This document shows, in pieces, positions 1-30,299 of a DNA stretch of 57,191 bases. Made by a program: the position numbers and the translations under genes. The DNA is from a virus (Duplodnaviria; Caudoviricetes). The notes under the pieces are model-generated. The model had not been told where the DNA came from. It searched no databases and saw nothing but the letters and a program-made list of their open reading frames with translations. Numbering within the stretch: position 1 is the stretch's first letter; each line of letters opens with the position of its first letter. The stretch is taken from positions 1 through 57,191 of IMG/VR virus record IMGVR_UViG_3300024262_000034, one strand, 5' to 3'.

Positions 1-215
1 ACAATCAAGGCTCTGGACAATCAAGGCTCTGGACACTCAAGGCTCTGGACAATCAAGGCTCTGGACAATCAAGGCTCTGGACACTCAAGGCTCTGGACAC
101 TCAAGGCTCTGGACACTCAAGGCTCTGGACAATCAAGGCTCTGGACAATCAAGGCTCTGGACAATCAAGGCTCTGGACACTCAAGGCTCTGGACAATCAA
201 GGCTCTGGACAATCA
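1..215. repeat. Tandem array of 16-bp unit ACA(A/C)TCAAGGCTCTGG, 13 full copies plus a partial, truncated by the window edge
   Basis: Counted directly. Only position 4 varies (A A C A A C C C A A A C A) and there are no spacers. Confidence 0.98.
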
Positions 216-249
216 GACAAACATAGTCCGATAATCTTTAAATCAGGAC

Positions 250-296
250 AAAAAAATATGCTTTTAGTCAATATCTAAAATCAACTAAAAGCATAT
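250..296 (-). terminator. Intrinsic terminator ending the leftmost minus-strand transcript
   Basis: 13-bp inverted repeat ATATGCTTTTAGT (256-268) / ACTAAAAGCATAT (284-296), followed by a T-run on the minus strand. Confidence 0.65.
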
Positions 297-321
297 CGAC
301 AATGAAAAAACAATATTCTAC

Positions 322-417
322 TTAATAAGCACTTGCAAGAAATTGCATAGCAGTCATAAACCCGACAACCAAAACCGTAAAACCCAAACCGATATAAAAT
401 AAATCTTTTGTATCCAT
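322..417 (-). CDS. Small membrane peptide (31 aa, MDTKDLFYIGLGFTVLVVGFMTAMQFLASAY)
   Basis: Hand-translated. AAGGA RBS and a promoter upstream, one hydrophobic segment. Confidence 0.55.
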   Translation of the reverse strand: MDTKDLFYIGLGFTVLVVGFMTAMQFLASAY

Positions 418-439
418 AATCTTTTTTTCCTTATTAATT

Positions 440-489
440 AGTGTTTTTTATATCCACTAATATTATAAAATACCAGTGATAAAAAGCAA
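440..489 (-). promoter_or_regulatory. Sigma70-like promoter (TTGCTT-N16-TATAAT) plus conserved leader GTGGATATAAAAAACACT
   Basis: -35 at 484-489 and -10 at 462-467. The 18-bp leader is identical at 5163-5180 and 6649-6666. Confidence 0.7.
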
Positions 490-790
490 ATAAATTATTG
501 TAATTTTTTCAGGTTATAAAATCCGATATTATATGCTTTAAATAATATATCGGTTTTAATATACTGATTATCATAAAATCGGTTTTGACAATGGCGATGC
601 CCCTGTAGTATGGCCGATTGTATTAAACGCAGCATTTTATCGTTGTAAAATATCATTGTTTTATCCTATATATTTTAGTCGTAAACTGGCAAGTTTTAAA
701 GCGGTTGACAAGGTTTTTTCACTATTTACGAGTAAAATTCCCTTGTAATATACTTTAAATCCGGTAATGTCTTTTTTGATTTTTATCATG

Positions 791-1033
791 TTATGAACAT
801 AATTCAGGTAATTTTTTCCAATTCATCATATTATAGGCTGTTTTTCGGTCGATTTTTTCACCGTCCCAGTCTTCTTTTATTTCGTCCCAAAAAACACGTT
901 CAAAACGTATTGATTTTTTGATATGGTCAATAGTTATATTCATACAATCATTATTGTGTGGACATTCAAACGACCACAAGATTTTTCCATTTTCCAATTT
1001 ATTCCCTATTTGTTCTGGCGATATTGTTTTCAT
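791..1033 (-). CDS. Hypothetical early protein
   Basis: ORF with AAGGGA RBS and an upstream promoter. Confidence 0.65.
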   Translation of the reverse strand: MKTISPEQIGNKLENGKILWSFECPHNNDCMNITIDHIKKSIRFERVFWDEIKEDWDGEKIDRKTAYNMMNWKKLPELCS

Positions 1034-1072
1034 TGTTTTTTCCCTTTAAATAGTGTTTTTTATTCTATATTC

Positions 1073-1128
1073 AATGTATAATATAAAACAAAAAAAGCAA
1101 GGTAGAATTTATTTTTTTCTACCTTGCT
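1073..1128 (-). terminator. Terminator hairpin overlapping the -35 of the next promoter
   Basis: 12-bp inverted repeat AGCAAGGTAGAA (1096-1107) / TTCTACCTTGCT (1117-1128) with a T-run. TTGCTT-N16-TACATT at 1100-1073. Confidence 0.6.
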
Positions 1129-1150
1129 ACAGAAAAAAAACAATATCGGA

Positions 1151-1750
1151 CTAAAAAGGTATCTTACTGTTTTTTTCATTTAGCCATAAAACCGCTTGCA
1201 ATTGACAAGGTACGATATTACTTATTTTTTCACTTGCTACCTTAAAAGCATCGACAATATTATAATACTGCGTTTTGTTACCGCTTAACATATCCAATTT
1301 TAAAGCATTAAAGATATGTCGGTCAAGTGTTACAAAATCGGGATTGTTTGGGTTGACAATATTCTCATAAAATGCCATTGTTTTAAATGGCCTTTTACCA
1401 AAAATATCAGCAGTCAATAACAAGGGATTATCCAATAATTTCAATGCTTTTTTTATTTGTTGCTTATACGTCGTTAAGGTCAAGCCGTCGATTTTTTTGC
1501 TATGCTGATAGGCTTTCAATAAATGATAGGCTTGTAATTTATTGTTTGGCCATGATACCGCTGGAGATAATAAGGCAATAATGGCCGATGTTACTTCTAA
1601 ACTATAACCGGTTTTTTTCGCAATTCTTAAAGCCGTTTTGTTCGCTTTAAAATACCAGTTTTTTCCCTTGTCAATCGTCGTATTATCGCACTGATTATAC
1701 AATGCAATAATTTTATTGACTAAATGATAGTTTGTTTTTTGTTTTGTCAT
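1151..1750 (-). CDS. Conserved phage protein, HhH-GPD DNA glycosylase-like (DUF7178-type)
   Basis: Motifs GxxWY, IIALLSPxxSWxxN, KTxAFYxNI, VTLDRH and LQAVLW. Confidence 0.6.
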   Translation of the reverse strand: MTKQKTNYHLVNKIIALYNQCDNTTIDKGKNWYFKANKTALRIAKKTGYSLEVTSAIIALLSPAVSWPNNKLQAYHLLKAYQHSKKIDGLTLTTYKQQIKKALKLLDNPLLLTADIFGKRPFKTMAFYENIVNPNNPDFVTLDRHIFNALKLDMLSGNKTQYYNIVDAFKVASEKISNIVPCQLQAVLWLNEKNSKIPF

Positions 1751-1765
1751 TATCCTGTTTTTTCC

Positions 1766-2080
1766 TTAAATAAACTTTATATCAACAGCGTTTTTTGACA
1801 CTAAAATACAATCCTGATAAAATTGAGTTTTATAAGCATTACATATCGTTCCTATTTGTGATTGAATATGGAACGTATCATTTAAAATCAATTCTACAAT
1901 CGCAGTATTTTCTTGAGTATTTTCCCAAAAACCCAAAGCATAAATTATTGTAAAACTCTTAAAACATGGTGTGATATGTTTTTCGCAAAAATCAATAAAA
2001 TCGTCTTTTGAGATAATACCGATTTTTTTTGAGAATAACCCAAAATATAAACGAAAACAGGTTTTTTGTTGACTCGGCAT
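1766..2080 (-). CDS. Putative S-adenosylmethionine lyase (T3 SAMase/Svi3-3-like, DUF3574 PII-like fold)
   Basis: YFGL...FTIIYALGFWENTQENTAIVE...YQDCILV resembles the recalled T3 SAMase segments EEKTVRV and EQDCVLV. Confidence 0.6.
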   Translation of the reverse strand: MPSQQKTCFRLYFGLFSKKIGIISKDDFIDFCEKHITPCFKSFTIIYALGFWENTQENTAIVELILNDTFHIQSQIGTICNAYKTQFYQDCILVSKNAVDIKFI

Positions 2081-2379
2081 TATTTTTTTCCTTATGTTTT
2101 TGACCGGTATAGACTAAAAAACGATTTTACTCTATACCGGTCAATTATTAAAATTGGATATGGTTTTTTTCTAATCCGTATCGTCTTACATCTTTATCGG
2201 CCAATTGACGGTTTTCAGCATATCGACGGAAAAAATCACGTCGATTTTTTCTTTTTTCTGCTAACTGTTTTTCGGATAAATCGCTAAACTTGACACGTTT
2301 TAAATAGTTGCAATTCATTGTTTTTTCCTTTTAAAATAGGGTTGTTTTTTCTTTACATATTCACTGTAATATATAGGTA

Positions 2380-2682
2380 TTACATTGTCAATTGATTTTT
2401 CCAATATTTTACCGATAAACTATTTTTTTCAACCGATTCAATCGCATTAAATAAATACAATTTTTCGCCCGATTCAAAAGTATCGTTATAGTATATTTTT
2501 TGAAATATACTAGATTTTAGAGTATTACCAGAAAACTTTTTATTATGCAATTCCTGTAAAACAAGGAAAACATCGTATAAGTTTTTTCCATTTAATGACA
2601 ATAAAATATCGACCGTGCAAAACTCATTGTCGGTTATAATGTCGATCAATTCACAGCGTATCATTTTATTGTTTTTTAGCAT
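2380..2682 (-). CDS. Hypothetical protein
   Basis: ORF with AAGGAAAAAC-ATG initiation region. Confidence 0.6.
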   Translation of the reverse strand: MLKNNKMIRCELIDIITDNEFCTVDILLSLNGKNLYDVFLVLQELHNKKFSGNTLKSSIFQKIYYNDTFESGEKLYLFNAIESVEKNSLSVKYWKNQLTM

Positions 2683-2694
2683 TGTTTTTCCTTA

Positions 2695-2874
2695 TTATAT
2701 TTTTTGAATTTTTCCTTTTTTGATTATATCTATGGCCAATGTTAAACCGGTAGAAATACCAACATAGTGGTCATATACTCGTTTGTCTTTCGTATGCCGT
2801 GCATGGAAATAAATTTTTTCTTTTGCAATTTTTTTTTGTTCTTTTAGCAGTGCGATAATATTTTGTTTGTCCAT
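2695..2874 (-). CDS. Hypothetical basic protein (59 aa, MDKQNIIALL...)
   Basis: Hand-translated. AAGGA RBS and a promoter at 2919-2947. Confidence 0.5.
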   Translation of the reverse strand: MDKQNIIALLKEQKKIAKEKIYFHARHTKDKRVYDHYVGISTGLTLAIDIIKKGKIQKI

Positions 2875-2966
2875 TGTCTTTTTTCCTTATAATAAGACTG
2901 TTTTTTCTTTACAATATCACTGTAAAATACAAAAAACAAAAAAACAACAAATAAATATAAATTTTT

Positions 2967-2998
2967 TATAATGACACTGCTATACTATAATGACACTG
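2967..2998 (+). promoter_or_regulatory. Plus-strand extended -10 promoter (TGcTATACT) with duplicated TATAATGACACTG, directed into the repeat region
   Basis: 13-bp direct repeat at 2967-2979 and 2986-2998. TGCTATACT at 2978-2986. Confidence 0.45.
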
Positions 2999-3037
2999 GA
3001 AAACAATATCTTATATAGTCCGATAATATCGACGACG

Positions 3038-3307
3038 GAATATACCGTCTGGACCGGTTATGCAGGTTATGCAGGTTATGCAGGTTATGCAGGTTATGCA
3101 GGTTATGCAGGTTATGAAGGTTATGCAGGTTATACCGGCTGGACCGGTTATGCAGGTTGTGCAAATTATGCACGATGTGCCAACTATACCGATTATCGGG
3201 ATTATACCGATTATCGGGATTATAGTGGATATGGTGATTATAACGATAACGCAGAACGTGAGGATTATGCGGATTATGAGAGATGTGCCGATTATGCCGG
3301 TTGTAGG
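3038..3307. repeat. Degenerate 9-bp tandem array (GGTTATGCA grading to GATTATNNN), about 30 units
   Basis: Six exact GGTTATGCA copies at 3056-3109. The 9-bp phase is kept to about 3307. Confidence 0.92.
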
Positions 3308-3560
3308 GCCGCTTCCCTAAAAATCGAGTTATCGGACGAAAGGCCGCTTCCCTAAAAAGTTATCGGACGCTTCCCTAAAAATCCGGCTTCCCTAAAGTTA
3401 TCGGACGCTTCCCTAAAAATCCGGCTTCCCTAAAGTTATCGGACGGAGAGCCGCTTCCCTAAAAAATCCGGCTTCCCGAAAAAAGTCCCGCTTCCCTAAA
3501 ATTCCCCGCCCCCATTGGGATTCCCCGCTTCCCTAAAAAATAAGCCCGCTTCCCTAAAAG
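3308..3560. repeat. Mosaic array of GCTTCCCTAAA (10 exact plus 1 variant) interspersed with GTTATCGGACG (4 copies)
   Basis: Counted directly. Includes an exact 38-bp tandem duplication at 3359-3396 / 3397-3434. Confidence 0.95.
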
Positions 3561-3738
3561 GAAAAACGGGTTTATTCAAGATTCTTACTGGGGATAAGAA
3601 CCTACAATCAAAACAAAAAGTATCACTCACTCAAAAAAATAACCTACTAATCATGTTGCCGAGATTGCTGCCAATAGTGCCACCCAAAAAGCCCCACCAC
3701 AGCCCGTTATTCCATGTATCAGTGAATATTTTCATACC

Positions 3739-4023
3739 TTATTCCTTATTCTTGATTTTTCGTTTTCGTTCAATCACAATTCCGTCATAAAACAATCGGA
3801 CTTCCCCTTTGAACTTTATCCACCATTCCCCCTTTTCCTGATAAACTTCAAAGCCCAAGCCAAGATCAACCGCCGCTTCATTCATACGGCGTTTCGTGGT
3901 GGCAGTCTTCCAGCCGCCTGAGTCAAGCTCAATAATTTTTTCATTAAATCGAACTATATCCGTCCGGGATAGCCGTACCATTGTACCGCCGTTTTCAGTC
4001 TTAATCGTGGTTCCAGTTTTCAT
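3739..4023 (-). CDS. Conserved phage hypothetical protein
   Basis: LDSGGWKTATTKRRMN...VYQEKGEWW motif, recalled from small phage proteins. RBS present. Confidence 0.7.
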   Translation of the reverse strand: MKTGTTIKTENGGTMVRLSRTDIVRFNEKIIELDSGGWKTATTKRRMNEAAVDLGLGFEVYQEKGEWWIKFKGEVRLFYDGIVIERKRKIKNKE

Positions 4024-4027
4024 TTTT

Positions 4028-4348
4028 TTATTTCCTTACCAACCAAAATTTATTTTCAACATCCGTAAACAATGGTTTAATATCCTCATACGATAATTTG
4101 TAACAACCGATTTTATTATCAAGTCGTAAGGGGTTTGTCCACCGATTGCCGTCTTTCAAGCTAATCAAGTTAAACTCACTGTTCCCCGTTTGGGCCAAAA
4201 TGTAATATTCATCATTGTAATATTTATCATCCTGATATTGAAACAGATCACCGATTGAGAAGAGTATTTTCTTACAGCTAGAAAACATTCGGGTTTCTTT
4301 TACTTCAATAGTTAAGGTTTCTTTTACTTCAACAGTTATTTTCATCAT
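4028..4348 (-). CDS. Hypothetical protein
   Basis: ORF in operon context with a short VEVKET/IEVKET duplication. Confidence 0.6.
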   Translation of the reverse strand: MMKITVEVKETLTIEVKETRMFSSCKKILFSIGDLFQYQDDKYYNDEYYILAQTGNSEFNLISLKDGNRWTNPLRLDNKIGCYKLSYEDIKPLFTDVENKFWLVRK

Positions 4349-4496
4349 TCATTCCTTTGTGTAAATTAATTCAGCTATATTCAGAACGGATTCTGCCGAT
4401 TCAGCCGCCAAAGTCCAACCGGCGTTTTCCAGCTTCAACTTTTGGATTTCCGCCTGTTTAATACTTTTTTCATCATCCCAGTCAATCGTGATTTTT

Positions 4497-4805
4497 TTAG
4501 TTTTCATGTTCAAAAGGCTCTTGACTCAACTCGCAGTCACAATATTGACAAATAGGTATGCCGACTTCAGCCAGATCGTCATAGTTGACGATCTTTTCTT
4601 CACCGCACTCAGGGCAGGCCCATACCTTGCTACCGTTGGGTTCTAGGATGATCTGAACATTGTTGACCGATTCAAAGGCATCAATCATGTCATCCACCGT
4701 AGCTTTGACCTCTTCAACATAACCGGCCTTTGTGGGCATGACGATTACGCGGTCATCATCCATCAGGTAATCCACAAAATACTTTTTCATCTGTTTCTTA
4801 TTCAT
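4497..4805 (-). CDS. Hypothetical protein with C-terminal zinc ribbon
   Basis: CPEC...CQYC motif. AAGGA RBS and TTGACC-N17-TATAGT promoter (4877-4849). Confidence 0.7.
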   Translation of the reverse strand: MNKKQMKKYFVDYLMDDDRVIVMPTKAGYVEEVKATVDDMIDAFESVNNVQIILEPNGSKVWACPECGEEKIVNYDDLAEVGIPICQYCDCELSQEPFEHEN

Positions 4806-4873
4806 TCTTTTATTCCTTGTTAAAAGTCTTAATCATTCAACCGTATATACTATAAAATACAATTCAGATCAGG

Positions 4874-5149
4874 TCAAAAAAAATCTTTAAAATATCCGTC
4901 ACTATCCTGAATCGGATTCTGGCCGGTTATAAAACTGGTTCCCCGCAAAGCCAAACCGTCCTTTGTATATCCAGAGATAGCACCAAAGGGGCAAGAGTTT
5001 TTTCTCTGTTTTTCCAGAATGCAAAAGACCGGATAGTTTTTGCTATCCACTTCAGCAACGGCGGCAGATGCTTTCTTGAGACTTTTAAAATTGCCGATAT
5101 GCAATTTATACTCAGGCTTGTTTGATATGGCGTAGAGGGAATAAATCAT
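4874..5149 (-). CDS. Hypothetical protein
   Basis: GGAG RBS, preceded by the conserved promoter-leader at 5163-5212. Confidence 0.65.
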   Translation of the reverse strand: MIYSLYAISNKPEYKLHIGNFKSLKKASAAVAEVDSKNYPVFCILEKQRKNSCPFGAISGYTKDGLALRGTSFITGQNPIQDSDGYFKDFF

Positions 5150-5162
5150 TTTTTTCTCCGTT

Positions 5163-5212
5163 AGTGTTTTTTATATCCACCTATAGTATAAAATACAATC
5201 CAGAAAAAGCAA
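5163..5212 (-). promoter_or_regulatory. Promoter TTGCTT-N16-TATACT plus conserved 18-bp leader
   Basis: -35 at 5207-5212 and -10 at 5185-5190. Leader identical to 440-457. Confidence 0.7.
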
Positions 5213-5218
5213 ATAAAA

Positions 5219-5458
5219 TTAAGAATTTCTTCGAGATAATTCTGCCTCTAATACAACCTTTTCGGCTATACGCCTGTTTAAGAAATCATCCCAATACCCG
5301 TAAAATCCGTTGTTTTCCTTTTTAGCAGTATCTCGGAATTTTTTAGCGTCTTCTATATCATGGGCAGCAATTCGTATTCTCTGCCCAATCCGAGAATTAG
5401 ACGTGTGTTTTGAAAAAGCATGAAACCGCACTCTATCCATTGCTATCTCGAACTGCAT
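5219..5458 (-). CDS. Hypothetical protein
   Basis: ORF with start refined to MQFEIA after AAAGGA. Confidence 0.6.
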   Translation of the reverse strand: MQFEIAMDRVRFHAFSKHTSNSRIGQRIRIAAHDIEDAKKFRDTAKKENNGFYGYWDDFLNRRIAEKVVLEAELSRRNS

Positions 5459-5471
5459 AATATATCCTTTC

Positions 5472-5534
5472 AAAAAAAACCACCGGTGGAAAAGTCAAAA
5501 AAACCACCGGTGGTCAACAAGGAGGGAAAAATGA
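5472..5534 (-). terminator. Terminator-like hairpin (two CCACCGGTGG palindromes plus T8) preceded by an anti-SD tract
   Basis: Minus strand reads TCATTTTTCCCTCCTTG...CCACCGGTGG...CCACCGGTGGTTTTTTTT directly after a stop codon. Confidence 0.6.
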
Positions 5535-6131
5535 TTATCGGTCCATTACTTCCCGCAGGCTAAAAATACCGTCGGTGGCATTTATACCTTTGGGCGTAAT
5601 ACTTTTGTTATGTTTTCGCAGGTGGCCGGATTCAATCAGGCGTTCAACCGCCTCATCCCATTCATACTTTTGGATAGAGGTTTCATCCTGTGCCCGATCA
5701 AAACGGCTCTGGCCGTTATAGGTGGCTTTCATTGATCGGGTGGCAACCAGAACGATCTTTTCTGCAATATCAAGCTCTGCGGCAGGCTCAGTCAACATAA
5801 AAGTAAGGTCTGATTTATTGGCATAAAGTGTTACGCCAGACCACTTACCACAAAAACACCTAAGCTCACCCAATATCATTCGATCAGGCAGTTTGGCCAG
5901 ATAATTCGGGCGATCAGGCTCAAAAATCGGGTGATTGCTGTGGACTGATACCACCTTTTTTTCATCCAAGTGATAAAAGGCGTAAAAATTCCGACTCCCA
6001 CCATCCCAATAACTATGAATATCCGTTGGGATATTATCGGACACGCTGATTTTCTTGCCAGTGTAATCAGGAAAGCAGGCATTTACAATGGCTTTGGTTT
6101 GTTCGTCAATTTTTTCGAGTAAGATATTCAT
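5535..6131 (-). CDS. Conserved phage protein with possible C-terminal winged helix
   Basis: FPDYxGKK and SYWDGGSR motifs. C-terminal LIESGHL...ITPKG pattern. Confidence 0.65.
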   Translation of the reverse strand: MNILLEKIDEQTKAIVNACFPDYTGKKISVSDNIPTDIHSYWDGGSRNFYAFYHLDEKKVVSVHSNHPIFEPDRPNYLAKLPDRMILGELRCFCGKWSGVTLYANKSDLTFMLTEPAAELDIAEKIVLVATRSMKATYNGQSRFDRAQDETSIQKYEWDEAVERLIESGHLRKHNKSITPKGINATDGIFSLREVMDR

Positions 6132-6400
6132 TTTTCGTTCCTTGTTTTAAGCTCTTTTTTCAAAATAGCTATTTTGGCCTGATAATAATTAATCCCTTTG
6201 TCCATTCTCTCATAATTAAATGCACTCTTATAATTTGTAGATAAGCCACTTAAACGGCTATCTAATTTTTTAGCAGCATTCCGTGCCTGTTTTCTCTCAA
6301 TCATGCCGTCTTGATATAAATTTAAAAATTCAATTAAAATCATATCCGGTGCTTTTGCTGTTTTTCGCGTAAACTCAATAAGTTTTTCAGCATCCGTCAT
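6128..6400 (-). CDS. Hypothetical protein
   Basis: ORF with RBS and ATGA overlap with the downstream gene. Confidence 0.6.
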   Translation of the reverse strand: MTDAEKLIEFTRKTAKAPDMILIEFLNLYQDGMIERKQARNAAKKLDSRLSGLSTNYKSAFNYERMDKGINYYQAKIAILKKELKTRNEK

Positions 6401-6433
6401 AATAATATCCTTGTTAAAAGTGCATATAACTTA

Positions 6434-6628
6434 TTACCACCCGTTCTTTTCAGAGTCCATTTTGATAGCCGCCCGCAGCACTTCAATCTGTTCTGGCGTA
6501 TATTCTCTGGCTTCTAAATGTTCCATAATCAGACTATTACCTAAGCACTCTTCATCAACAAATTCACACAGCATGGTTTCAGAAAAGGTGAAATTCAGTT
6601 CCAGTAAAGTTTCAATCACTTGCATCAT
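6434..6628 (-). CDS. Small acidic hypothetical protein
   Basis: Glu-rich ORF behind the conserved promoter-leader. Confidence 0.6.
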   Translation of the reverse strand: MMQVIETLLELNFTFSETMLCEFVDEECLGNSLIMEHLEAREYTPEQIEVLRAAIKMDSEKNGW

Positions 6629-6648
6629 TTTTTTAATTCCTTGTTAAA

Positions 6649-6698
6649 AGTGTTTTTTATATCCACTTCTATTATAAAATATAAATTTTAGTTGTCAA
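6649..6698 (-). promoter_or_regulatory. Consensus promoter TTGACA-N16-TATAAT plus conserved 18-bp leader
   Basis: -35 at 6693-6698, -10 at 6671-6676, leader at 6649-6666. Confidence 0.8.
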
Positions 6699-6931
6699 GC
6701 CGTTTTGTCAAACATAGCTAAAATTTTATTTCCCTGAGAATCATAACAGAATCTGCCATGTTCACCGTAAAAAACAGGACCGCAAATAATGCCAAGCCCT
6801 TGTTTTTTGGACAAAGACAAAAGAGCGTCCGATAAGGTTATACTCTGGTTGGTCGAACATAAATATTTATATTCACCGTAGCCGGTGCGATTGTGAATAG
6901 TTGGTTGTGATACTAATATGTCAATCTTCAT
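6695..6931 (-). CDS. Hypothetical protein
   Basis: ORF with TAATG stop-start coupling. Confidence 0.55.
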   Translation of the reverse strand: MKIDILVSQPTIHNRTGYGEYKYLCSTNQSITLSDALLSLSKKQGLGIICGPVFYGEHGRFCYDSQGNKILAMFDKTA

Positions 6932-7146
6932 TATTCAACCTTTATAGAATTTATTCTGGCATTCGGCGGCAACTTATCAGCAGGCTCAAGCTGTAAAACA
7001 TTAATGTCAAACATCAAGTTATAGCCCCTGAATTGTACAATATATTCATCACAATAGGACACCGTGTATAATGCCCCGCTTACAAAGCCACCAAACCTTT
7101 TCAGGAAAGTCACTCTATATTGTTTTCCGATTTTAGGTTTTATCAT
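6931..7146 (-). CDS. Small beta-rich (SH3-like) protein, paralogue of 9544-9723
   Basis: Ungapped 16/54 identity to the 9544-9723 product by hand alignment. Confidence 0.6.
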   Translation of the reverse strand: MIKPKIGKQYRVTFLKRFGGFVSGALYTVSYCDEYIVQFRGYNLMFDINVLQLEPADKLPPNARINSIKVE

Positions 7147-7432
7147 TTTTTTTAATATCCCACTTTCCTTTTTCTTCAATAAATTTTATCCACCACCAGC
7201 TTGATCGGCTTTTTTGATGAGTGCCGGTTAAGGTGGCCATTGATGGCACTAAATAGGCTGGAAATTGATACCGATTAGCATCATACGCCACAGCCCGTTC
7301 TCGAACATAACAGACAAAGCAATCCCCACAATTGCAACGTGTTTGCAAGGCAACGTCAAGCTGTTGATTGCTTGCGTTTAATAGCGACTTGCGGTTAATA
7401 CCCTCTACGTCTATATAAGCAGATTTTCTCAT
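7133..7432 (-). CDS. Hypothetical protein with CxCxxCxxC cluster
   Basis: RCNCGDCFVC motif. Start refined to MRKSAY. Confidence 0.55.
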   Translation of the reverse strand: MRKSAYIDVEGINRKSLLNASNQQLDVALQTRCNCGDCFVCYVRERAVAYDANRYQFPAYLVPSMATLTGTHQKSRSSWWWIKFIEEKGKWDIKKNDKT

Positions 7433-7433
7433 T

Positions 7434-7592
7434 TTAAAACTTCCAGCCATCAGGCACAAATAAAATAAAATACCGCAAGGCATTGAAAAGTAAAAGTGGT
7501 AGTATAATATAAATAATAATACAGACCACCAGAGAAAGCGGCGAATCATATTTTAATAAAAATTTTTCAACAGGATGTCTTTTTTTAGCCAT
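7434..7592 (-). CDS. Small membrane protein (52 aa, MAKKRHPV...)
   Basis: Hand-translated. Starts inside the 33-bp repeat that carries RBS and ATG, and has a hydrophobic core. Confidence 0.55.
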   Translation of the reverse strand: MAKKRHPVEKFLLKYDSPLSLVVCIIIYIILPLLLFNALRYFILFVPDGWKF

Positions 7593-7828
7593 TCTCTGCT
7601 TTCCTTTTTAATTCAGACGTAGCTTGTAAGATAGCCTGATCTTGCCAGATGGTGGCGTTTATTGCCAGCGAACCGGATAAACGAGGGTAGCCCCACTCTA
7701 TAATAAGCTGTTTGTCTTTGTAAACATCAACATAAAGCTCTTGCCGGTCATGGAAATGCCAGACTGTTTTGAAACCGTCTTTTTCTAAAGTAACACTTTT
7801 TTTAGCCATTCTCTGCTTTCCTTTTTAA
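7579..7828. repeat. Perfect 33-bp direct repeats (7579-7611, 7796-7828) flanking one gene
   Basis: CTTTTTTTAGCCATTCTCTGCTTTCCTTTTTAA occurs twice. Confidence 0.95.
7585..7809 (-). CDS. Hypothetical protein within a direct-repeat-bounded cassette
   Basis: ORF with AAGGA RBS inside the repeat. Confidence 0.65.
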   Translation of the reverse strand: MAKKSVTLEKDGFKTVWHFHDRQELYVDVYKDKQLIIEWGYPRLSGSLAINATIWQDQAILQATSELKRKAENG

Positions 7829-7841
7829 ATAAAGCTCAATA

Positions 7842-8354
7842 TCACTTGTCAATAAATATCTTTCCAGTAAGCAAAAATTCGTTATCGTTGGCTTTAATAT
7901 TTTCAATAATATATTCGTCGCTGTTGATGTCGTCATACTCTTGAGCCAACATTTTAAGATAAGCACCGGCCAATGCTTTTAAAAAGTTGGTTTCAATCCG
8001 TTCATCCTCTGATTGCCACTGTTCATCATCCTCAATAGACTCACAGGCAGTATGAAATAAATCTTTGTACTCCAAAGCAATTTTATACGTTTGGCAGTCT
8101 TTGCCGTGATTTTCCAGTATTTTTTCAATGGTGAAATCAGCCGCCGCAATCGTGCAATCAACATATTCAATCTTAATAGTTTTTTGATACAGGTCAAACC
8201 CTGTTATTTCCAGACCGACATTTTTTGCATCATCATAAATATAATCCCACCAGTCATGCAGGCAGGAATCTTCACGATGTTGATTGACAACCTTTTCTTG
8301 TACATCTTCAGAAAGCTCTTCAAACGTGTAAACTTTTACTTTTGCAATTCTCAT
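7842..8354 (-). CDS. Conserved acidic phage protein
   Basis: VYTFEELSEDVQEK...EYDDINSDE...ANDNEF pattern, D/E-rich. Confidence 0.7.
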   Translation of the reverse strand: MRIAKVKVYTFEELSEDVQEKVVNQHREDSCLHDWWDYIYDDAKNVGLEITGFDLYQKTIKIEYVDCTIAAADFTIEKILENHGKDCQTYKIALEYKDLFHTACESIEDDEQWQSEDERIETNFLKALAGAYLKMLAQEYDDINSDEYIIENIKANDNEFLLTGKIFIDK

Positions 8355-8418
8355 TCTTTATTCCTTTTCTTGTTTTATTTCAATATCCGATATAGGATAA
8401 TATATGTTTTCAGGAAAG

Positions 8419-8661
8419 TCAACCCACAATCAAAAACTTTTTTCGGCCTGTGTCACGAATTTCATTTAATGCTTCCATATCCATCTCACCATTGAACATA
8501 AAGCATTGCCACCGAATTAAACGGGCAATCTGTTTTATGGTAACGGCCAGTGATTTAAAGTCAGGCAGGCCGAATCCAAAAAAGCAATCAATACCGGACG
8601 TACTTAAATCTTCACCAGATTGGGCAATCTTGACAGCCTCAGAAAGTTCTTTTTTATTCAT
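8419..8661 (-). CDS. Hypothetical protein
   Basis: AAGGA RBS and promoter TTGCCT-N16-TACATT (8715-8688). Confidence 0.65.
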   Translation of the reverse strand: MNKKELSEAVKIAQSGEDLSTSGIDCFFGFGLPDFKSLAVTIKQIARLIRWQCFMFNGEMDMEALNEIRDTGRKKFLIVG

Positions 8662-8721
8662 TTTTTATTCCTTATGTTGTTACTCATAATGTAGAATATA
8701 AAAAATAAAAGGCAAATAAAT

Positions 8722-8749
8722 TTGCAAAAAATTTTTCAGGCTGTATAGT
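8722..8749 (+). promoter_or_regulatory. Plus-strand promoter TTGCAA-N16-TATAGT directed into the non-coding repeat region
   Basis: Hexamers at 8722-8727 and 8744-8749, back-to-back with a minus-strand promoter. Confidence 0.5.
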
Positions 8750-8926
8750 TATGACATGAAGATCGACCGGCAAACGTAGTCCGATAATATTTCAACAGAA
8801 ATAATCGCTCTAGGTCCAGTAACCCTAGATAGTTATAGGACCAGTCCGGCCTGAAATGTCCAAAGGTCCGGTAACAATGAAGGTCCGATAATATAACTGG
8901 GAGTGACAATCAAGGTCCGATAATAT

Positions 8927-8994
8927 AGAGAACTGGATAAGTAGATCAAGAAGTCCAGAAAGAGAACTGGATAAGTGGATCAAGAAGTCCAGAA
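8927..8994. repeat. 34-bp tandem duplication with 1 mismatch
   Basis: AGAGAACTGGATAAGT(A/G)GATCAAGAAGTCCAGAA twice. Confidence 0.95.
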
Positions 8995-9145
8995 GCCGCT
9001 TCCCTAAAAGTGCCGCTTCCCTAAAAGTGCCGCTTCCCTAAAAGTGCCGCTTCCCTAAAAGTGCCGCTTCCCTAAAAGTGCCGCTTCCCTAAAAGTGCCG
9101 CTTCCCTAAAAGTGCCGCTTCCCTAAAAGTGCCGCTTCCCTAAAA
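8995..9145. repeat. Tandem array of 17-bp GCCGCTTCCCTAAAAGT, 8 full copies plus 1 partial
   Basis: Counted directly. Same core and orientation as the 3308-3560 array. Confidence 0.98.
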
Positions 9146-9310
9146 ACACTCATCCTCATCGAAAATAATATTTCGCCAAACGATTGGATAGTCATCATCC
9201 TCTAGTTCTCTCAATGTTCGCATAATAGGCACACCAGATAATTCATCGAACCCACACCCTATTGCGTGATGAACCTGTAACTGTAATTGTTTTTTACTTA
9301 TACGAGCCAT
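9140..9310 (-). CDS. Hypothetical protein
   Basis: AGGAGAGGA RBS before MARISKK. Its TAG stop lies in the last repeat unit. Confidence 0.55.
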   Translation of the reverse strand: MARISKKQLQLQVHHAIGCGFDELSGVPIMRTLRELEDDDYPIVWRNIIFDEDECF

Positions 9311-9323
9311 TGTTGTTCCTCTC

Positions 9324-9554
9324 CTAAATTCTACGGCGAATACTTGAATCCGGTTCATGTATTGCAAAAACAATTTCTTGATGACGTTCACCCTGCTTGA
9401 CAGCTTCTGCCTCTGTCTCTACCACCGTTCCCCGCACACCGTTGTATAGGCTGAGAAACCTGTACCGCACATAGGTTGGTTGACTACCCAAACGCTCGAT
9501 TGTATATATCGCTCCACCGGTTGGGGGCAATATTCGTTTTGATCTAGTTGTCAT
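9324..9554 (-). CDS. Hypothetical protein
   Basis: ORF in operon context. Confidence 0.55.
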   Translation of the reverse strand: MTTRSKRILPPTGGAIYTIERLGSQPTYVRYRFLSLYNGVRGTVVETEAEAVKQGERHQEIVFAIHEPDSSIRRRI

Positions 9555-9723
9555 TTATCTTTTCCATCCTCAATGTATGCAACAAAAAAACATACGCAGA
9601 ATCTTTAAACCGGACAAGATTCTTTTCGACAGCCGTAACCTCATAAACTTCACCACTTTTAAGACCGGATGAATGTTCCCGGAAAAAGACTTTATATTTT
9701 TCACCTACTTTTATCTCAACCAT
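9544..9723 (-). CDS. Small beta-rich protein (59 aa, MVEIKVGEKY...), paralogue of 6931-7146
   Basis: Hand-translated. GAGGA RBS and similarity to 6931-7146. Confidence 0.6.
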   Translation of the reverse strand: MVEIKVGEKYKVFFREHSSGLKSGEVYEVTAVEKNLVRFKDSAYVFLLHTLRMEKINDN

Positions 9724-9757
9724 GTATATTTTATCCTCTAACTGTAGAAGATTTTTT

Positions 9758-10333
9758 TCACCAACACTTCACCCTATACTTACCGGGAACATAAGACAAT
9801 ACCGCTTTCGATTGCCGTATGGTTGTGTTCAGTTCATCAAACGCTTCCTGAATTTCCGTTGGAACATCACCCTCTTCCGGTAAGTCACCGGAGTAATAAT
9901 CATATGGCTCAATCTCGGAGGCGTACACCGGGTCACAGATAATAAGTTTTGCTTGTGCATAATAATTCTTTGGATTTTCATCATCAAGCATTATCTCGTC
10001 ATACAGGTAGTCATTAAGATCACCCTCGCTGAAAAAATAACGATCAAAACATACTGAATAGACCGGTCGCTTTCTATCCCATTCTTTTTCATGCAAAGCA
10101 AAAAACTTTTCTTTTTGCTTTGCATAACTACACTTTTCGCAGTATGAGTTCTTGTCATAGACACACCCACACTCACACTTTTTATGTGTTGCCCCATCCC
10201 ATCTAGCTGATCTCTCATCTGCTCCATAATAATGACCTTGACGGCTCACCCAACCTTTGATGTCAGTCCGGTAAGTTGCCGCAGACTCATCCTCTGGAAA
10301 AATTTTGATGTCTTCATTCATCATGGAAACCAA
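9758..10333 (-). CDS. Conserved phage protein with Cys cluster
   Basis: GWVSRxGxYYGxDERxARWDGATHxxCxCG...CxxC motif. Confidence 0.7.
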   Translation of the reverse strand: MVSMMNEDIKIFPEDESAATYRTDIKGWVSRQGHYYGADERSARWDGATHKKCECGCVYDKNSYCEKCSYAKQKEKFFALHEKEWDRKRPVYSVCFDRYFFSEGDLNDYLYDEIMLDDENPKNYYAQAKLIICDPVYASEIEPYDYYSGDLPEEGDVPTEIQEAFDELNTTIRQSKAVLSYVPGKYRVKCW

Positions 10334-10380
10334 CCTCTTTATTTAAATTTTATGGTGACGGACTCTAAATTGTTTTAATA

Positions 10381-10428
10381 GGTCGCCAGCAGGTGTGTGA
10401 CTACCGGCGACCAAAGGAGGAAAAATGA
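10381..10428 (-). terminator. Hairpin preceded by an anti-SD tract
   Basis: Minus strand TCATTTTTCCTCCTTTG followed by the stem GGTCGCCGGTAG / CTGCTGGCGACC. Lacks a clear U-tract. Confidence 0.5.
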
Positions 10429-10599
10429 AAATCTATTTAAAAAATCCCCACAATGCCATAATAAATAGCATTTCAGAGATTAAAAAGAACACACTAAAAA
10501 ACCGGATGAGTGTTCCGTTTCCACAATGCTCTTTAAATATGTTGCTGCAATTCACCATCATGTGCAGACATAAATAAGCTGTAAGATAGATATTAAACA

Positions 10600-11178
10600 T
10601 TAGTGTGCAATCCTTATAATCCCCTGTTCTTTACAAAACGAACAACGGCATGGTGGGTCTGACCTGTCATCAGGTTTTCCATCAGGTGCAGCACCATGCC
10701 AACGCCAACGATCTTCGGCTCCCATCAGGCAGTGGTGATTCTTATCAAATTCCGGGAATTCATCATTATGCTCTTCCCAGTGCCGGACATGTTGTTCAAA
10801 ACTTTCCAGCACTTCCTGATCGGTCTGCCCTTCATCAAACGTCCAATGTTCAAACCATGACAGACACCACGTTGTGTCTTCCAGCTTCTTAACCTCATAG
10901 GTCATCGTTCCTTCAATCGCACCGTTATCTTTGTCAACCTGACGTTGAAAGGCTTCTTCACAAAATTTTTGCAATTCTTCAGGAGTTGGCTCTTCTCTGA
11001 AGATTGTATTCCAACCGGTTCCGTTACGGCTTTGACCATCAGGAAGACCACCACAACTGCGGCATGGTTTATCCTTGGTGTCATCGGGGTCAGACTTACA
11101 CCAGCAGTCTTTGCCAACTTCCCGTGTGAAAATCCATTTTAGTTCAAAGCGGTAATGGGGATATTTTTTTACCGACAT
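10600..11178 (-). CDS. Cys/Trp-rich hypothetical protein
   Basis: CWC...CRSCGG and PPCRCSFC motifs. Start refined to MSVKK. Confidence 0.65.
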   Translation of the reverse strand: MSVKKYPHYRFELKWIFTREVGKDCWCKSDPDDTKDKPCRSCGGLPDGQSRNGTGWNTIFREEPTPEELQKFCEEAFQRQVDKDNGAIEGTMTYEVKKLEDTTWCLSWFEHWTFDEGQTDQEVLESFEQHVRHWEEHNDEFPEFDKNHHCLMGAEDRWRWHGAAPDGKPDDRSDPPCRCSFCKEQGIIRIAH

Positions 11179-11317
11179 TTCCATACCATCCAAAAAAAGA
11201 AAACACCAACCGTAACACAACCAGCCGTGAAAAGCTGGCACAATAAATTATAATTTTCAGCATTCATAATAAAACCCTTTCTCCCTACATATTACCATCT
11301 AGGGATCAAAAGTCAAA

Positions 11318-11608
11318 CTATTTCAATAAATTTTCATTATAAATCTGGATGGCCTTTTCCACATTCTTGACATGTTGATCAACAAAGTTTTTCAGCCGCA
11401 TCAGATCACTGAAGTGGCGGTTCAGGCTAAGCGGAGCTTTGCTGTCTGTTCCGGGACTCTGGTGATCCCATAATAAGACTGTGCTGCTACCATCACACAG
11501 GGTAAATTCAGCCTCCATTGATCCGAGATACACATTTACATTTGAAGAAGCACTTCTCAGGGGGTTTCGACCCGCCGTACTCAGGAATGTTTGCTTGGCA
11601 ATTTCCAT
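11318..11608 (-). CDS. Hypothetical protein
   Basis: ORF with AAAGGTG RBS. Confidence 0.6.
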   Translation of the reverse strand: MEIAKQTFLSTAGRNPLRSASSNVNVYLGSMEAEFTLCDGSSTVLLWDHQSPGTDSKAPLSLNRHFSDLMRLKNFVDQHVKNVEKAIQIYNENLLK

Positions 11609-11619
11609 ACTACACCTTT

Positions 11620-12033
11620 CTATTTTACAGGGTTAGTTAGCTCTTCACGATAATTTTCTACCTGACCAGAACTATTGACCGTCCACCGAACAACTCGGCC
11701 TGACAATGGATTCAGCCCGCCACCCACGGTTAATTTTGGTTGTAATAGCCACTGAAGCGTCCTACGTCGAATAACTGGCTGTTTCGGGTCAGCCGGGTCC
11801 AACTCAGAGATTGTCAGTGTGACCCGATAGGGGAAGTCTCTTTTAGGGAGATTCAACCCCAAGTTATACCCGATGTCTTCGGTGATCTTGTCTTGATAAT
11901 TAAAATCGTTAAACTTCTCGACAACCGGGAACACGTTACCAAAGTTGGCTTCCCCATAGACCACCACAAATCCAGCTAAAAAGGCTGCGATTCCCACCAA
12001 CCACGAAGTTATTATTTTAGTTTTTTTATTCAT
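11620..12033 (-). CDS. Membrane-anchored hypothetical protein
   Basis: N-terminal basic residues followed by a hydrophobic helix. Confidence 0.6.
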   Translation of the reverse strand: MNKKTKIITSWLVGIAAFLAGFVVVYGEANFGNVFPVVEKFNDFNYQDKITEDIGYNLGLNLPKRDFPYRVTLTISELDPADPKQPVIRRRTLQWLLQPKLTVGGGLNPLSGRVVRWTVNSSGQVENYREELTNPVK

Positions 12034-12244
12034 TATACTCTCCCATCATTTCAAACCCCTCGGCTAATCTGTCATCCAAAGGGTGAAGATTATAGTCACT
12101 ATCATCATAACACTCCCCGCATACTCGATCATACTTCCCGCAATCTGTTTCACTCTGTACATCCCGTAAGTCTTTCTCTGCCGTTGGGTTTCCACACCAA
12201 TTACAATAGTAGGCTGATCCAGTATATTGTTTGTGCTCGTTCAT
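12026..12244 (-). CDS. Small zinc-finger protein
   Basis: CNWC...CGEC motif. Confidence 0.55.
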   Translation of the reverse strand: MNEHKQYTGSAYYCNWCGNPTAEKDLRDVQSETDCGKYDRVCGECYDDSDYNLHPLDDRLAEGFEMMGEYNE

Positions 12245-12549
12245 TCTTTCGGTTTCGGCCAACAATCATTCCCATCCAGATAGGTTTCCAGCCCGGCTAT
12301 GCAGGGGCAGACATGAAACCCCTTACTGCTTTTCCACTGTTTATCCTGCAACAACAGGTCAATATATTTCTGATACCTCGGCAGTTCGACCATATCATTA
12401 AATATACCGTCGTGATCCATTGACATCACACTGGCAAATTCAAACCCCTCCATCAACCAGCCGATTGTTTTATCAAACCAAACTTGAAAAATAAAGTCCA
12501 ACAGGTCTTCCTTGAGTTCGGACTCTAATATTTTTTTAACTGTAAGCAC
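12241..12549 (-). CDS. Hypothetical acidic protein
   Basis: ORF overlapping both neighbours. Confidence 0.55.
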   Translation of the reverse strand: MLTVKKILESELKEDLLDFIFQVWFDKTIGWLMEGFEFASVMSMDHDGIFNDMVELPRYQKYIDLLLQDKQWKSSKGFHVCPCIAGLETYLDGNDCWPKPKE

Positions 12550-12922
12550 GATAGCGTCCTATTGATATTTCTTGTTCAATCCGTTCCCGACGCAGAGGTG
12601 GAAAAAGTTCAATTGGTTTGTTTAACTCATGGGCCAACTCGAACTCTTCACCTAAGCCTGTTGATTCTTCCCACCCATTGGCATCCAGATATACCAGTTT
12701 ATCTGCCCACTTGATAAATTCTGTATTCATCTTTTGCCAGAAATTCCAATCATGTGGTAGATCAGTTATCACAGCAATGGGGCGGCAGTGAGTAATGGGT
12801 GAATAAACTATGTGACCTTCTTTCATTAGCTGTGCAGCAGCCGTGGTGACTACGAAATATCGAAACCGCATAATTTCTGCATCCGGGCTGCTATACGGCG
12901 TTGCTAAATATATTTTACTCAT
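12536..12922 (-). CDS. Nucleoside 2-deoxyribosyltransferase-like protein (DUF1937)
   Basis: IYLATPYS, VYSPITH and GWEESTGLGEEFELA motifs. Confidence 0.8.
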   Translation of the reverse strand: MSKIYLATPYSSPDAEIMRFRYFVVTTAAAQLMKEGHIVYSPITHCRPIAVITDLPHDWNFWQKMNTEFIKWADKLVYLDANGWEESTGLGEEFELAHELNKPIELFPPLRRERIEQEISIGRYRAYS

Positions 12923-14334: not shown

Positions 14335-14619
14335 TTACCCAGTTGACTCTGGATGGTTAGGGTTTCGAGCTTTGACCACAGTAACATCCAACGGGAGCAA
14401 CTGTTCCCCGGCTGCTTTCCATGCGGCATCAATGAGGTTGTCGTGAAATTCTTCATCATCAATCAGTTCTTTGTACTCACTCTCAAACAGCCATCGGGTA
14501 TAAACAAATTCGTTGTCATTAATCTGTAAGTGAACACACAACGCCGCCACTTGTTCAGGATGCTGGCGGTGCTTCTGAACATATTGAGATTCATAATCAT
14601 ATAGTATAAGTTGGATCAT
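14335..14619 (-). CDS. Hypothetical protein
   Basis: ATGA overlap with the DUF3326 gene. Confidence 0.55.
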   Translation of the reverse strand: MIQLILYDYESQYVQKHRQHPEQVAALCVHLQINDNEFVYTRWLFESEYKELIDDEEFHDNLIDAAWKAAGEQLLPLDVTVVKARNPNHPESTG

Positions 14620-30099: not shown

Positions 30100-30299
30100 T
30101 ATCCAGATGCCTTTAAGTTTTTAGTGAGGTCTGAAATGTGGCACAAAACTTTAGGGTTAACACTACACCAGTGCCTACCTATATCATTCTCCGGTCCAGA
30201 TAGTTGAATACCAGTCCAAATATTATCACAACTACCTGCAATAAGCAATCCCAACACACCTTGTCCATTCGTTGCAACCATACCTTGTTTTGGTTCCAT
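30099..30299 (-). CDS. Hypothetical protein
   Basis: TAATG coupling on both sides. Confidence 0.55.
   Translation of the reverse strand: MEPKQGMVATNGQGVLGLLIAGSCDNIWTGIQLSGPENDIGRHWCSVNPKVLCHISDLTKNLKASG

Follow-up and report, generated by a model that had tools for sequence, protein, structure and literature searches.

The first 9,145 nucleotides of the IMG/VR virus record IMGVR_UViG_3300024262_000034 contain three non-coding repeat modules, here called A, B and C, whose common building block is a short word, GTCCGATAA. The record, a linear sequence of 57,191 nt, was analysed in its entirety and is referred to below as the window. By sequence, GTCCGATAA is a common XerC-side arm of dif, the site through which bacteria untangle their chromosomes; Xer/dif is a housekeeping system of near-universal occurrence. 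The modules are real, are conserved in related phages and reach far beyond the window: dense arrays of XerC-side half-sites occur in several kinds of tailed phage, at promoters that include a late promoter. These observations suggest that a Xer-type recombinase is drawn to the control regions of the window phage and of many others. We put at about even the chances that the modules are arrays of Xer-recombinase half-sites that double as operators, together making up a platform similar to the res site of Tn3 and gamma-delta or to the sites used by mobile elements that integrate by making use of Xer (IMEXs).

The shared word and the XerC-side arm of dif

The pattern GTCCNATAA matches 15 times in the window, against 2.07 matches expected, and 13 of the 15 are exactly GTCCGATAA. 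Ten of these exact copies lie inside the three modules and one lies on the promoter of the capsid gene. A search with GTCCGATAAT, allowing at most one mismatch, gave 18 matches in the window against 3.03 expected. The logo constructed from 545 phage sites is a compact, asymmetric element, (A)(C/G)GTCCGATAA(C/T), with no conservation in its flanks.

Chromosomal dif has a 6-bp centre between two 11-bp arms, the left one being that of XerC (PMC5357621, in the part available). In the dif table of Carnoy and Roten (2009; PMC2731167, in excerpt), the sites of Anaeromyxobacter, Myxococcus, Geobacter, Desulfovibrio and Syntrophus begin with ACGTCCGATAAT, AGGTCCGATAAC, ACGTCCCATAAG, ATGTCCCATAAT and TTGTCCTATAAG, respectively; dif seed sequences are also given in an excerpt of PMC3025954. 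These five published starts, A(C/G/T)GTCC(G/C/T)ATAA, are the phage word, and they agree with it in flanks and in variant position. A genome scan with GTCCGATAA-N6-TTATGTNAA returned at least 120 stretches, one per record among the matches listed, and the phyla and groups among them include Acidobacteriota, Sphingomonadales, Thermodesulfobacteriota, Myxococcales, Planctomycetota, Firmicutes, Bacteroidota, Actinobacteria and more. Chance alone would yield about 70 matches. However, across the 120 stretches listed the free columns are kept as in dif (centre T/G-A-T-A-T-A, end AA(C/A)T, and A at positions −3 and −2), and because chance would not give conserved free columns we take these stretches to be real dif sites. 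The 13 copies of GTCCGATAA in the window match the left arms of the five published sites and those of all 120 stretches listed. The phage logo further has in common with dif the A at −2, the C or T at +9 and the variant words GTCCCATAA and GTCCTATAA.

In view of its identity with the XerC-side arm of dif in many phyla, we read (A)(C/G)GTCCGATAA(Y) as a probable half-site for a Xer-type tyrosine recombinase, situated in conserved intergenic control regions. Among the functions that the first-pass annotation had proposed for the modules, DNA sites that engage or titrate a host protein fit this identity best. The modules and the capsid promoter are made up of the following features.

1 to 215, plus strand: module A, 16-mer tandem array ACAATCAAGGCTCTGG / ACACTCAAGGCTCTGG; 13.4 copies with 96% matches by Tandem Repeats Finder; 13 matches, none elsewhere; the contig starts inside the array
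222 to 235, plus strand: module A, Xer-arm-like site CATAGTCCGATAAT, from the sequence
255 to 297, minus strand: intrinsic terminator, an 18-pair hairpin and T run closing the last minus-strand gene before module A, from a scan
2890 to 2991, both strands: module B, back-to-back promoter region (repeat family D16, scan and sequence; consensus matches only); the minus-strand promoter is homologous to one at 2316–2373, and plus-strand −10 hexamers lie at 2967–2972 and 2986–2991
3015 to 3028, plus strand: module B, TAGTCCGATAATAT site, lying 24 nt beyond the −10 of the plus strand
3040 to 3300, plus strand: module B, 9-nt periodic array [G/A]TTAT[G/C/A]NN; GGTTATGCA 13 times at 3056–3172, then GATTATCGG, GATTATACC and others
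3311 to 3558, plus strand: module B, 11 GCTTCCCTAAA units separated by spacers of variable kind, four inverted sites lying among them
3329 to 3337, 3360 to 3368, 3398 to 3406 and 3436 to 3444, minus strand: the four inverted sites, reading GTCCGATAAC on the minus strand
3545 to 3570, minus strand: module B, terminator-like hairpin formed with the last GCTTCCCTAAA unit, from a scan
8688 to 8749, both strands: module C, back-to-back promoters (scan, repeat family D9 and sequence); minus-strand −35 at about 8711–8716 and −10 at about 8688–8693, plus-strand TTGCAA at 8722–8727 and TATAGT at 8744–8749
8777 to 8790, plus strand: module C, TAGTCCGATAATAT site, 28 nt past the plus-strand −10
8814 to 8923, mostly plus strand: module C, series of sites, some full and some degenerate: GGTCCAGTAAC, GTCCTATAA (minus strand, 8833–8841), GGTCCGGTAAC, and GGTCCGATAATATA at 8882 and 8914
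8927 to 8994, plus strand: module C, 34-mer in 2.0 copies, with two degenerate site-like words per unit (CTGGATAAG and AAGTCCAGAA)
8995 to 9145, plus strand: module C, 17-mer array GCCGCTTCCCTAAAAGT in 8.9 copies with 100% matches, abutting the stop codon of the minus-strand gene 9140–9391
56899 to 56872, minus strand (feature 56855 to 56899): sigma-70-type promoter TTGACT-16-TATACT of the capsid gene, a late promoter, from the sequence
56855 to 56863, plus strand: GTCCGATAA site just downstream of the capsid −10, from the sequence

Every element that the first-pass annotation had listed for the three modules was recovered by repeat finding and motif counts, far above chance, including the recurrence of the module A core GACAATCAAGG at 8905–8915 (family D14). 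The four inverted sites of module B and the site at the capsid promoter had escaped that annotation. Allowing at most one mismatch, GCTTCCCTAAA matches 20 times, always on the plus strand (11 at 3311–3558 and nine at 8998–9144), against 1.15 expected and a maximum of three in 100 shuffles. The 9-mer array of module B decays toward about 3300 while its 9-nt period is retained. Its units contain the inner TTAT(C/G) of Xer arms, and the reverse complement of GATTATCGG is CCGATAATC, which forms the inner part of the shared site. Plus-strand promoters firing into modules B and C had also been proposed. The scan recovered the one in module C (TTGCAA-16-TATAGT, 8722–8749), but at module B it gave only ATGACA-18-TATAGT at 2990–3019, the duplicated TATAAT-GACACTG read there earlier having a weak −35; all of these promoters are consensus matches only. 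The sites of modules B and C fall about 25 nt past the plus-strand −10.

An open reading frame (ORF) of 121 codons on the plus strand, 2990–3355, which the earlier annotation had missed, overlaps the 9-mer array and could mean that the array is coding. The frame stays open across 261 nt of degenerate 9-mers, and its product, with G/D-Y-x repeats, gives a weak match to the Collagen-repeat model (22.7 bits against a cut-off of 27.2). On the other hand, it has no Shine-Dalgarno ribosome-binding site and its ATG lies inside the −10 hexamer, all 23 of its tyrosine codons are TAT and none TAC (301 to 145 in the phage genes), module C has the same layout with no plus-strand ORF of 40 or more amino acids, and all other genes are on the opposite strand. 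We therefore rejected it as a gene; that it is one appears extremely unlikely.

Only one public run, of DNA, contains the stretch; its independent contigs cover 186–2922, 3087–3385, 3416–7608, 7799–9024 and 9116 onwards, with a break in every array. We attribute the breaks near the modules to the tandem repeats, and among the contigs of that one run no joints or ends were seen near the arrays. The arrays exist, and their copy numbers are as assembled in this record.

Conserved layout and single cores in related phages

Searching with the capsid gene recovered 80 related viral loci; two early proteins, each searched singly, recovered no relatives. Only two of them have at least two exact sites, L127 (in record G002) and L172 (in G003), and the whole records contain GTCCGATAA 12 times in G002 and ten times in G003, with the reversed word present at most once. 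Three further records, G014, G016 and the complete G042, have a common primase-helicase (45–47% identity) together with site clusters. The primase relatives L006–L010 have no arrays. The order of elements in the window modules is repeated at 21.4–21.8 kb in G003, 57.4–57.9 kb in G042, 2.96–3.34 kb in G014 and 22.59–23.0 kb in G002: a sigma-70-like promoter on the strand opposite the genes, back to back with an early promoter, then tandem GTCCGATAA with a period of 26–29 nt, then a short C-rich tandem array. At the module B site, 17 nt (GTCCGATAATATCGACG) are identical in L127 (1005–1021). The view of the modules as a reiterated cis-acting system, advanced from the window sequence, is thus supported by a layout kept at syntenic places, with five related contigs carrying the layout or the clusters. 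The outcome that the first-pass annotation had named as a refutation, absence of the motifs from the syntenic positions of related phages, did not occur.

In these relatives the sites lie upstream of early promoters, and the capsid promoter is marked as well: G002, G003 and G042 have a homologous site inside the promoter spacer, the window has its site just after the −10, and G014 has a degenerate copy only. The unit of the C-rich array is specific to the lineage (GACCCGCGACCCATCCCAC in G003; CAACCCACCCTC in G002, G014 and G042; GCTTCCCTAAA in the window), and the C-rich arrays would belong to the same unit as the sites. In E. coli and Vibrio, the FtsK orienting polar sequence (KOPS) is a G-rich 8-mer, GGGNAGGG, that points toward dif and guides FtsK (PMC5357621, in the part available). 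The G-rich strand of the phage arrays (TTTAGGGAAGC in the window; GAGGGTGGGTTG in G002, G014 and G042; GTGGGATGGGTC in G003) points to the adjacent sites in all six modules seen, which are homologous and so not independent. No array equals GGGNAGGG exactly, this 8-mer being an E. coli and Vibrio motif that may not be the host's, and arrays near site clusters in other phage types are not G-rich.

All five relatives contain a single complete core each, in which 6 nt separate the arm from TTATG, and in every case this core is in the cluster nearest the packaging genes.

G042: AACGTCCGATAA gacagg TTATGTTGTGC
G014: CCGGTCCGATAA tatagg TTATGCTTCAC
G016: GTAGTCCTATAA tcgggg TTATGTATCAT
G002: GACGTCCGATAA gaccag TTATGTGTCGC
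G003: TACGTCCGATAA cgccag TTATGTTTTGT

In these cores the XerC side is retained and the XerD side has diverged. The same pattern has been described for TLC, the 57-kb gonococcal island GGI and EludIMEX-1 (PMC5357621, in part). The cluster that holds the core is syntenic with module A, which is truncated in the window.

Several contigs of the capsid-gene relatives begin in or near short tandem arrays about 8–10 kb upstream of the capsid gene, with a GCTCTGG core like that of the module A 16-mer. Because these arrays sit there, we consider module A the syntenic counterpart of an array-bearing region located ahead of the early and packaging genes. The 16-mer array used as a probe for the missing flank of module A matched no other viral contig. 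This position, and the breaking of several contigs there, might point to signals for staged injection or genome ends, or to terminase-binding (pac) arrays, and the injection-stop region (iss) of T5, with which the modules had been compared at the outset, is likewise non-coding and has several repeat families. T5 positions 1–12000, with the first-step-transfer and iss DNA, contain no GTCCGATAA, however, and the phage family is reported to be circularly permuted with headful packaging (PMC11946847, in excerpt). Modules B and C lie within the early region, another site is on the capsid promoter, and the tandem repeats account for the contig breaks. These results lend the T5 analogy no support, and a role in injection or packaging seems extremely improbable.

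The first-pass annotation also considered iteron-type origins primed by transcription. The modules would then be replication origins, whose repeats would serve the primase-helicase or some other initiator as iterons and whose plus-strand promoters would prime or activate replication, by analogy with P4 ori plus crr. In line with this, the window has one array core twice, at positions 5.5 kb apart (3311–3558 and 8998–9144); this core arrangement has a parallel in G042, where the array core is likewise duplicated in a second module (8.8 kb, the first being at 57.7 kb). Predicted transcription is directed into the repeats, and a large primase-helicase gene is present at 16271–18739. Against it, cumulative GC skew shows no turn anywhere in the window, the arrays adjoin neither an AT-rich unwinding element nor an initiator gene, and many of the phage types with the motif have no such primase-helicase. 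A strong primase-helicase match was found in only 6 of 45 motif records, co-occurring with the motif in the YuA-like subset only. In locus L241 the sites are spread over 2 kb inside small genes in different frames, unlike an origin. The origin proposal gained nothing from these results, and we regard it as very unlikely.

A similarly low probability attaches to the possibility that RNA is the functional product, in which case the plus-strand promoters near 2991 and 8749 would make repeat non-coding RNAs, their C-rich arrays serving for Rho loading or as a protein sponge, or antisense RNAs to upstream genes. Promoter-like sites are present on the gene-free strand in modules B and C and also in G003 and G042. 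In the reading direction of these promoters the arrays are rich in C and poor in G (C/G 1.9–2.1 in the window and 3.0–9.6 in the relatives) and would be predicted to make good Rho-loading RNA, and YuA makes four antisense RNAs with defined starts (PMC10914365, in the part available). However, no Rfam family matched, it is the DNA word that is conserved between relatives and not the array sequences, the orientation of the sites relative to the promoter flips between phages, and the counterpart promoter of G003 seems to lead into a rightward operon.

Three further ideas about the arrays were tried and set aside. The GCTTCCCTAAA pair pattern proved unusable as a family marker: it returned 1 viral, 58 metagenome and 33 genome stretches, all of other repeat families (coding repeats, archaeal 27-mers and the end of a Bacteroidota element) and none of them kin of the window. 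A CsrA sponge, based on AGGGA on the gene strand, was dropped on finding that the arrays of G002, G014 and G042 lack GGA, and a Chi site was dropped on finding that in 5 of module B's 11 units the conserved core does not include the AGCGG part. The Bacteroidota element (L070–L098, e.g. L072 60–88 and L077 570–598; many Flavobacteriaceae and other Bacteroidota genomes) has an 18-mer, TGTAGGCTTCCCTAAAAA, in two or three tandem copies followed by the conserved ...AGGACAGTT..AATTCGAATTTACTAA.TTTAAATT. It is often found at contig ends, looks like the end of a widespread mobile element and shares the 11-mer of the window arrays, probably by chance.

Two observations concern the relatives themselves. 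The ends of G014 (L378–L380), 2960–3338 and 58168–58546, repeat each other at an offset of 55,208 nt; the record, labelled linear and 92% complete, probably represents an entire genome, circular or permuted, of about 55.2 kb. In G002, at 12122–12221 (L183), GAGGGTGGGTTG is also a 21-nt repeat in an apparent open frame, giving EGGLTS-like heptads, upstream of a trypsin-like protease region.

Spread among viral contigs and the candidate binding protein

Viral contigs were scanned for two copies of GTCCGATAAY within 4–34 nt, with the reversed word as control. Site pairs were found in at least 120 viral loci with GC contents of 0.24–0.68, on contigs of 4–205 kb among the matches listed. Four or more sites (up to more than 20) were present in 66 of the 120 matches listed, against 6 of 64 reversed-control loci, and eight of these 66 motif-rich loci have one core each, against 0.74 expected. 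In 46 whole motif-rich records we counted 512 sites and 22 control-word sites, the former tightly localized. The motif-rich phages include YuA-like siphoviruses, N4-like phages and phages of 110–165 kb with a Xer-type gene of their own. The genes neighbouring the 120 loci listed include a giant N4-like virion RNA polymerase gene (11 loci) and a large terminase gene (10 loci), among others. L241 has 31 copies of GTCYNATAA in 2.7 kb, against 1.48 expected, mostly in one orientation; because these run through small genes in differing reading frames, we take the word to be a DNA-level signal.

Eight N4-like contigs (L198, L236, L238, L255, L257, L258, L263 and L210) have three direct copies and one inverted copy of GTCCGATAA, 14–30 nt from start to start, beside the virion RNA polymerase gene; blastn of this cluster against cultured phages gave no match. 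In bacterial assemblies, 15 of 120 stretches have at least four sites. Three of these assemblies (L584 1560–1960, L605 3650–3950 and L621 120–420; e.g. a 357-kb Bacillus sp. scaffold) contain non-coding GTCCGATAA arrays with a 20–21-nt period between terminator hairpins, and the L605 array has a full core, GTCCGATAA ggacag TTATGTG, like the cores of YuA-like phages.

Six of the 46 motif-rich records encode tyrosine recombinases. All six match the XerD and XerC models over their full length at 208–236 bits, below the equivalog cut-offs, and 48 control viral records gave five matches to the XerD model at 58–129 bits. No tyrosine recombinase (PF00589) was found in the 57-kb window, which is 89% complete by CheckV, and since the window has no recombinase gene we consider host XerC the candidate binder.

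Alternatively, the sites could be operators of a phage-encoded, non-Xer regulator that switches early, antisense and late promoters, with the likeness to the dif arm arising by convergence. Their placement is operator-like: they lie in or after the capsid promoter in four of five phages, about 25 nt downstream of the plus-strand promoters and upstream of the early promoters of the relatives. YuA has nine phage-specific promoters whose conserved motif is thought to need a phage factor (PMC10914365, in the part available), and 40 of the 46 motif-rich records lack a tyrosine recombinase. On the other side, by tblastn no early window protein is conserved in G002 or G003, and no protein family is common to more than 11 of 121 compared sequences (the 120 motif loci listed and the first 16 kb of the window). 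A regulator of this kind would also leave unexplained the single arm-6-TTATG cores, the dif-like variant words and the fact that all recombinases found are Xer-type. We regard it as possible but doubtful.

Several observations weigh against Xer half-sites as the explanation. At −3 the phage logo is weaker than that of dif and at −1 the two disagree, and a non-Xer protein could have the same 9-mer specificity. The orientation of the sites relative to the promoters varies, being forward in the window and G003 and reverse in G042 and G014. The recombinase gene is absent from the complete G042 as well as from the window, so a host protein must be assumed, and the 40 motif-rich records already mentioned likewise have no tyrosine recombinase. 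No GTCCNATAA-N6-TTAT core is present in the window; the syntenic module A is cut by the contig end, where the core stretch may simply be missing. Xer binding does not account for the C-rich, 16-mer and 9-mer arrays. Five cultured phages picked by primase similarity, including two of Sphingomonadales hosts, have 0–2 copies of GTCCNATAA and no clusters. The Pseudomonas phages YuA and Epa5 lack arrays of the gamma-type arm CGCATAA, so that copying of the host's arm by phages is not general; the first 50 kb of Epa5 has no arrays. Finally, bacterial genome assemblies contain ten relatives by capsid gene, four on contigs of at least 71 kb, and all ten lack site clusters, which means that no integrated motif-bearing phage has been seen.

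A possible Xer platform, known systems and the window genome

If the sites are Xer half-sites, the binder in the window phage would be host XerC, possibly with XerD. The bound Xer protein may also act as an operator protein: because the sites flank or follow sigma-70-type promoters, one of them that of the capsid gene, a protein bound there should control transcription. The single core, expected in the module lost at the contig end of the window, would suggest a recombination role, either resolution of replicated circles or integration at dif. We infer from these features a platform with one crossover core, many accessory half-sites and divergent promoters under Xer control, at which Xer binding, promoter repression and recombination might be combined.

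A more specific version, which we think unlikely, is that the sites act as a timer. XerC, with XerD, would be present at infection and serve as a phage repressor until titrated by replicated half-sites, at which point late and antisense transcription would be turned on. With one genome copy, Xer would occupy the half-site at the near-consensus promoter of the capsid gene as well as those lying a short way downstream of the antisense promoters; each replicated copy would add at least 12 or so high-affinity half-sites and deplete the few Xer molecules, so that replication is counted through dif-arm decoys. If so, host dimer resolution would be starved as a side effect, and the trick would be common to many unrelated tailed phages.

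For the modules, the closest working analogy appears to be Tn3/gamma-delta res, where one recombinase binds a crossover site and accessory subsites between divergent promoters that it represses; one core, accessory sites and divergent promoters would be the features in common. Res differs in having a serine recombinase, three subsites and an element-encoded enzyme, whereas the phage sites are tyrosine-type, far more numerous and spread over several modules, and their repression is inferred. IMEXs (TLC, VGJ and CTX phages, GGI and EludIMEX-1) resemble the phages in that the repeated phage word is the XerC-side arm of dif, that the relatives have a single core with a divergent XerD side, as in TLC, GGI and EludIMEX-1 (PMC5357621, in part), and that neither the window nor G042 has an integrase gene. 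Known IMEXs, however, have one or two complete sites, not 10–40 XerC-arm half-sites over promoters. They are filamentous or double-jelly-roll phages, satellites or islands, unlike tailed phages of about 60 kb with lytic-type gene sets, and for the motif phages neither an integrated copy nor a hybrid junction was seen, the window itself lacking a full core. The plasmid sites cer and psi similarly have a Xer core beside extra XerC-side DNA that shapes the synapse, with XerC exchanging first (PMC5357621, in part), but this accessory DNA binds ArgR, ArcA and PepA instead of more Xer half-sites and has neither promoter pairs nor tandem arrays.

YuA offers a parallel of another sort, with nine promoters sharing a conserved motif, with antisense RNAs and, ahead of the capsid gene, with a leader RNA (PMC10914365, in the part available). 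Its first 50 kb contains no GTCCNATAA, however, its motif is a different one (CTTTACTTCTTCGGA...CACTATAC), and it has only very short repeats before the terminase genes. T5 iss resembles the modules as non-coding DNA with several short direct-repeat families near early genes, but its words are different, it lies within the long terminal repeat of a fixed-end phage, and no copy is found on late promoters.

To our knowledge, Xer/dif hijacking has so far been known from a handful of small integrating elements, each acting through one complete site. A literature search judged at title level found no earlier description of such half-site arrays; as far as that search extends, the identity of the word with the dif XerC arm and the occurrence of half-site arrays in many tailed phages appear to be new. 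If the Xer interpretation is right, it would represent a second phage use of Xer proteins, as architectural or regulatory DNA binders or as accessory recombination factors. Arm arrays, whether or not one core accompanies them, would then also be a signature in the sequence by which such phages could be found and their hosts perhaps predicted.

Judging from its proteins, the window phage is a YuA/M6-like siphovirus. The capsid protein is 67–69% identical to those of YuA/M6-kind Pseudomonas phages (Mesyanzhinovviridae), its closest cultured kin by this protein. IMG/VR classes the record as linear with no end repeats. The minus strand carries every tiling ORF, and naming with PHROGs and Pfam identified the major head protein (55842–56762), siphovirus connector and tail genes (37–52 kb), helicases, ribonucleotide reductase, DNA polymerase A (20700–22691), the primase-helicase (16271–18739) and a nucleotide-modifying gene set. 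Terminase and portal genes were not found among the window genes, and we therefore place the missing 11% or so of the genome between window positions 57191 and 1. Rfam 15 at gathering score gave no match in the whole window, which also has no tRNA or tmRNA genes. Positions 1–9145 hold small genes of unassigned function with their own sigma-70-type promoters and a repeated leader (families D7 and D10), at a GC content of 0.29–0.40 in 2-kb windows.

On the minus strand of this early region, a promoter and conserved leader are repeated at 438–517, 5161–5240, 6649–6684 and 2897–2932, at least four copies ahead of small early genes; one example has TTGACA-16-TATAAT at 6698–6671 followed by GTGGATATAAAAAACACT. 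Positions 7563–7611 and 7780–7828 (family D17), in two adjacent small genes, are 88% identical over 49 nt that span the ribosome-binding region, the start codon and the first codons (MAKKS...). The small proteins encoded at 6931–7179 and 9544–9723 look paralogous (K.G..Y.V.F......SG..Y.V). The genes between 12536 and 36753 form a set typical of thymidine-hypermodifying or otherwise nucleotide-rebuilding phages, with a nucleoside 2-deoxyribosyltransferase-like DUF1937 protein (12536–12964), a DUF3326 protein (14616–15623) and proteins like SAM decarboxylase (15626–16012), dCMP deaminase (19327–19977), thymidylate synthase (30299–30997) and dNMP kinase (34293–34901). The same set includes a 529-aa 'A1-like DNA transfer protein' (phrog_1745) with no Pfam match.

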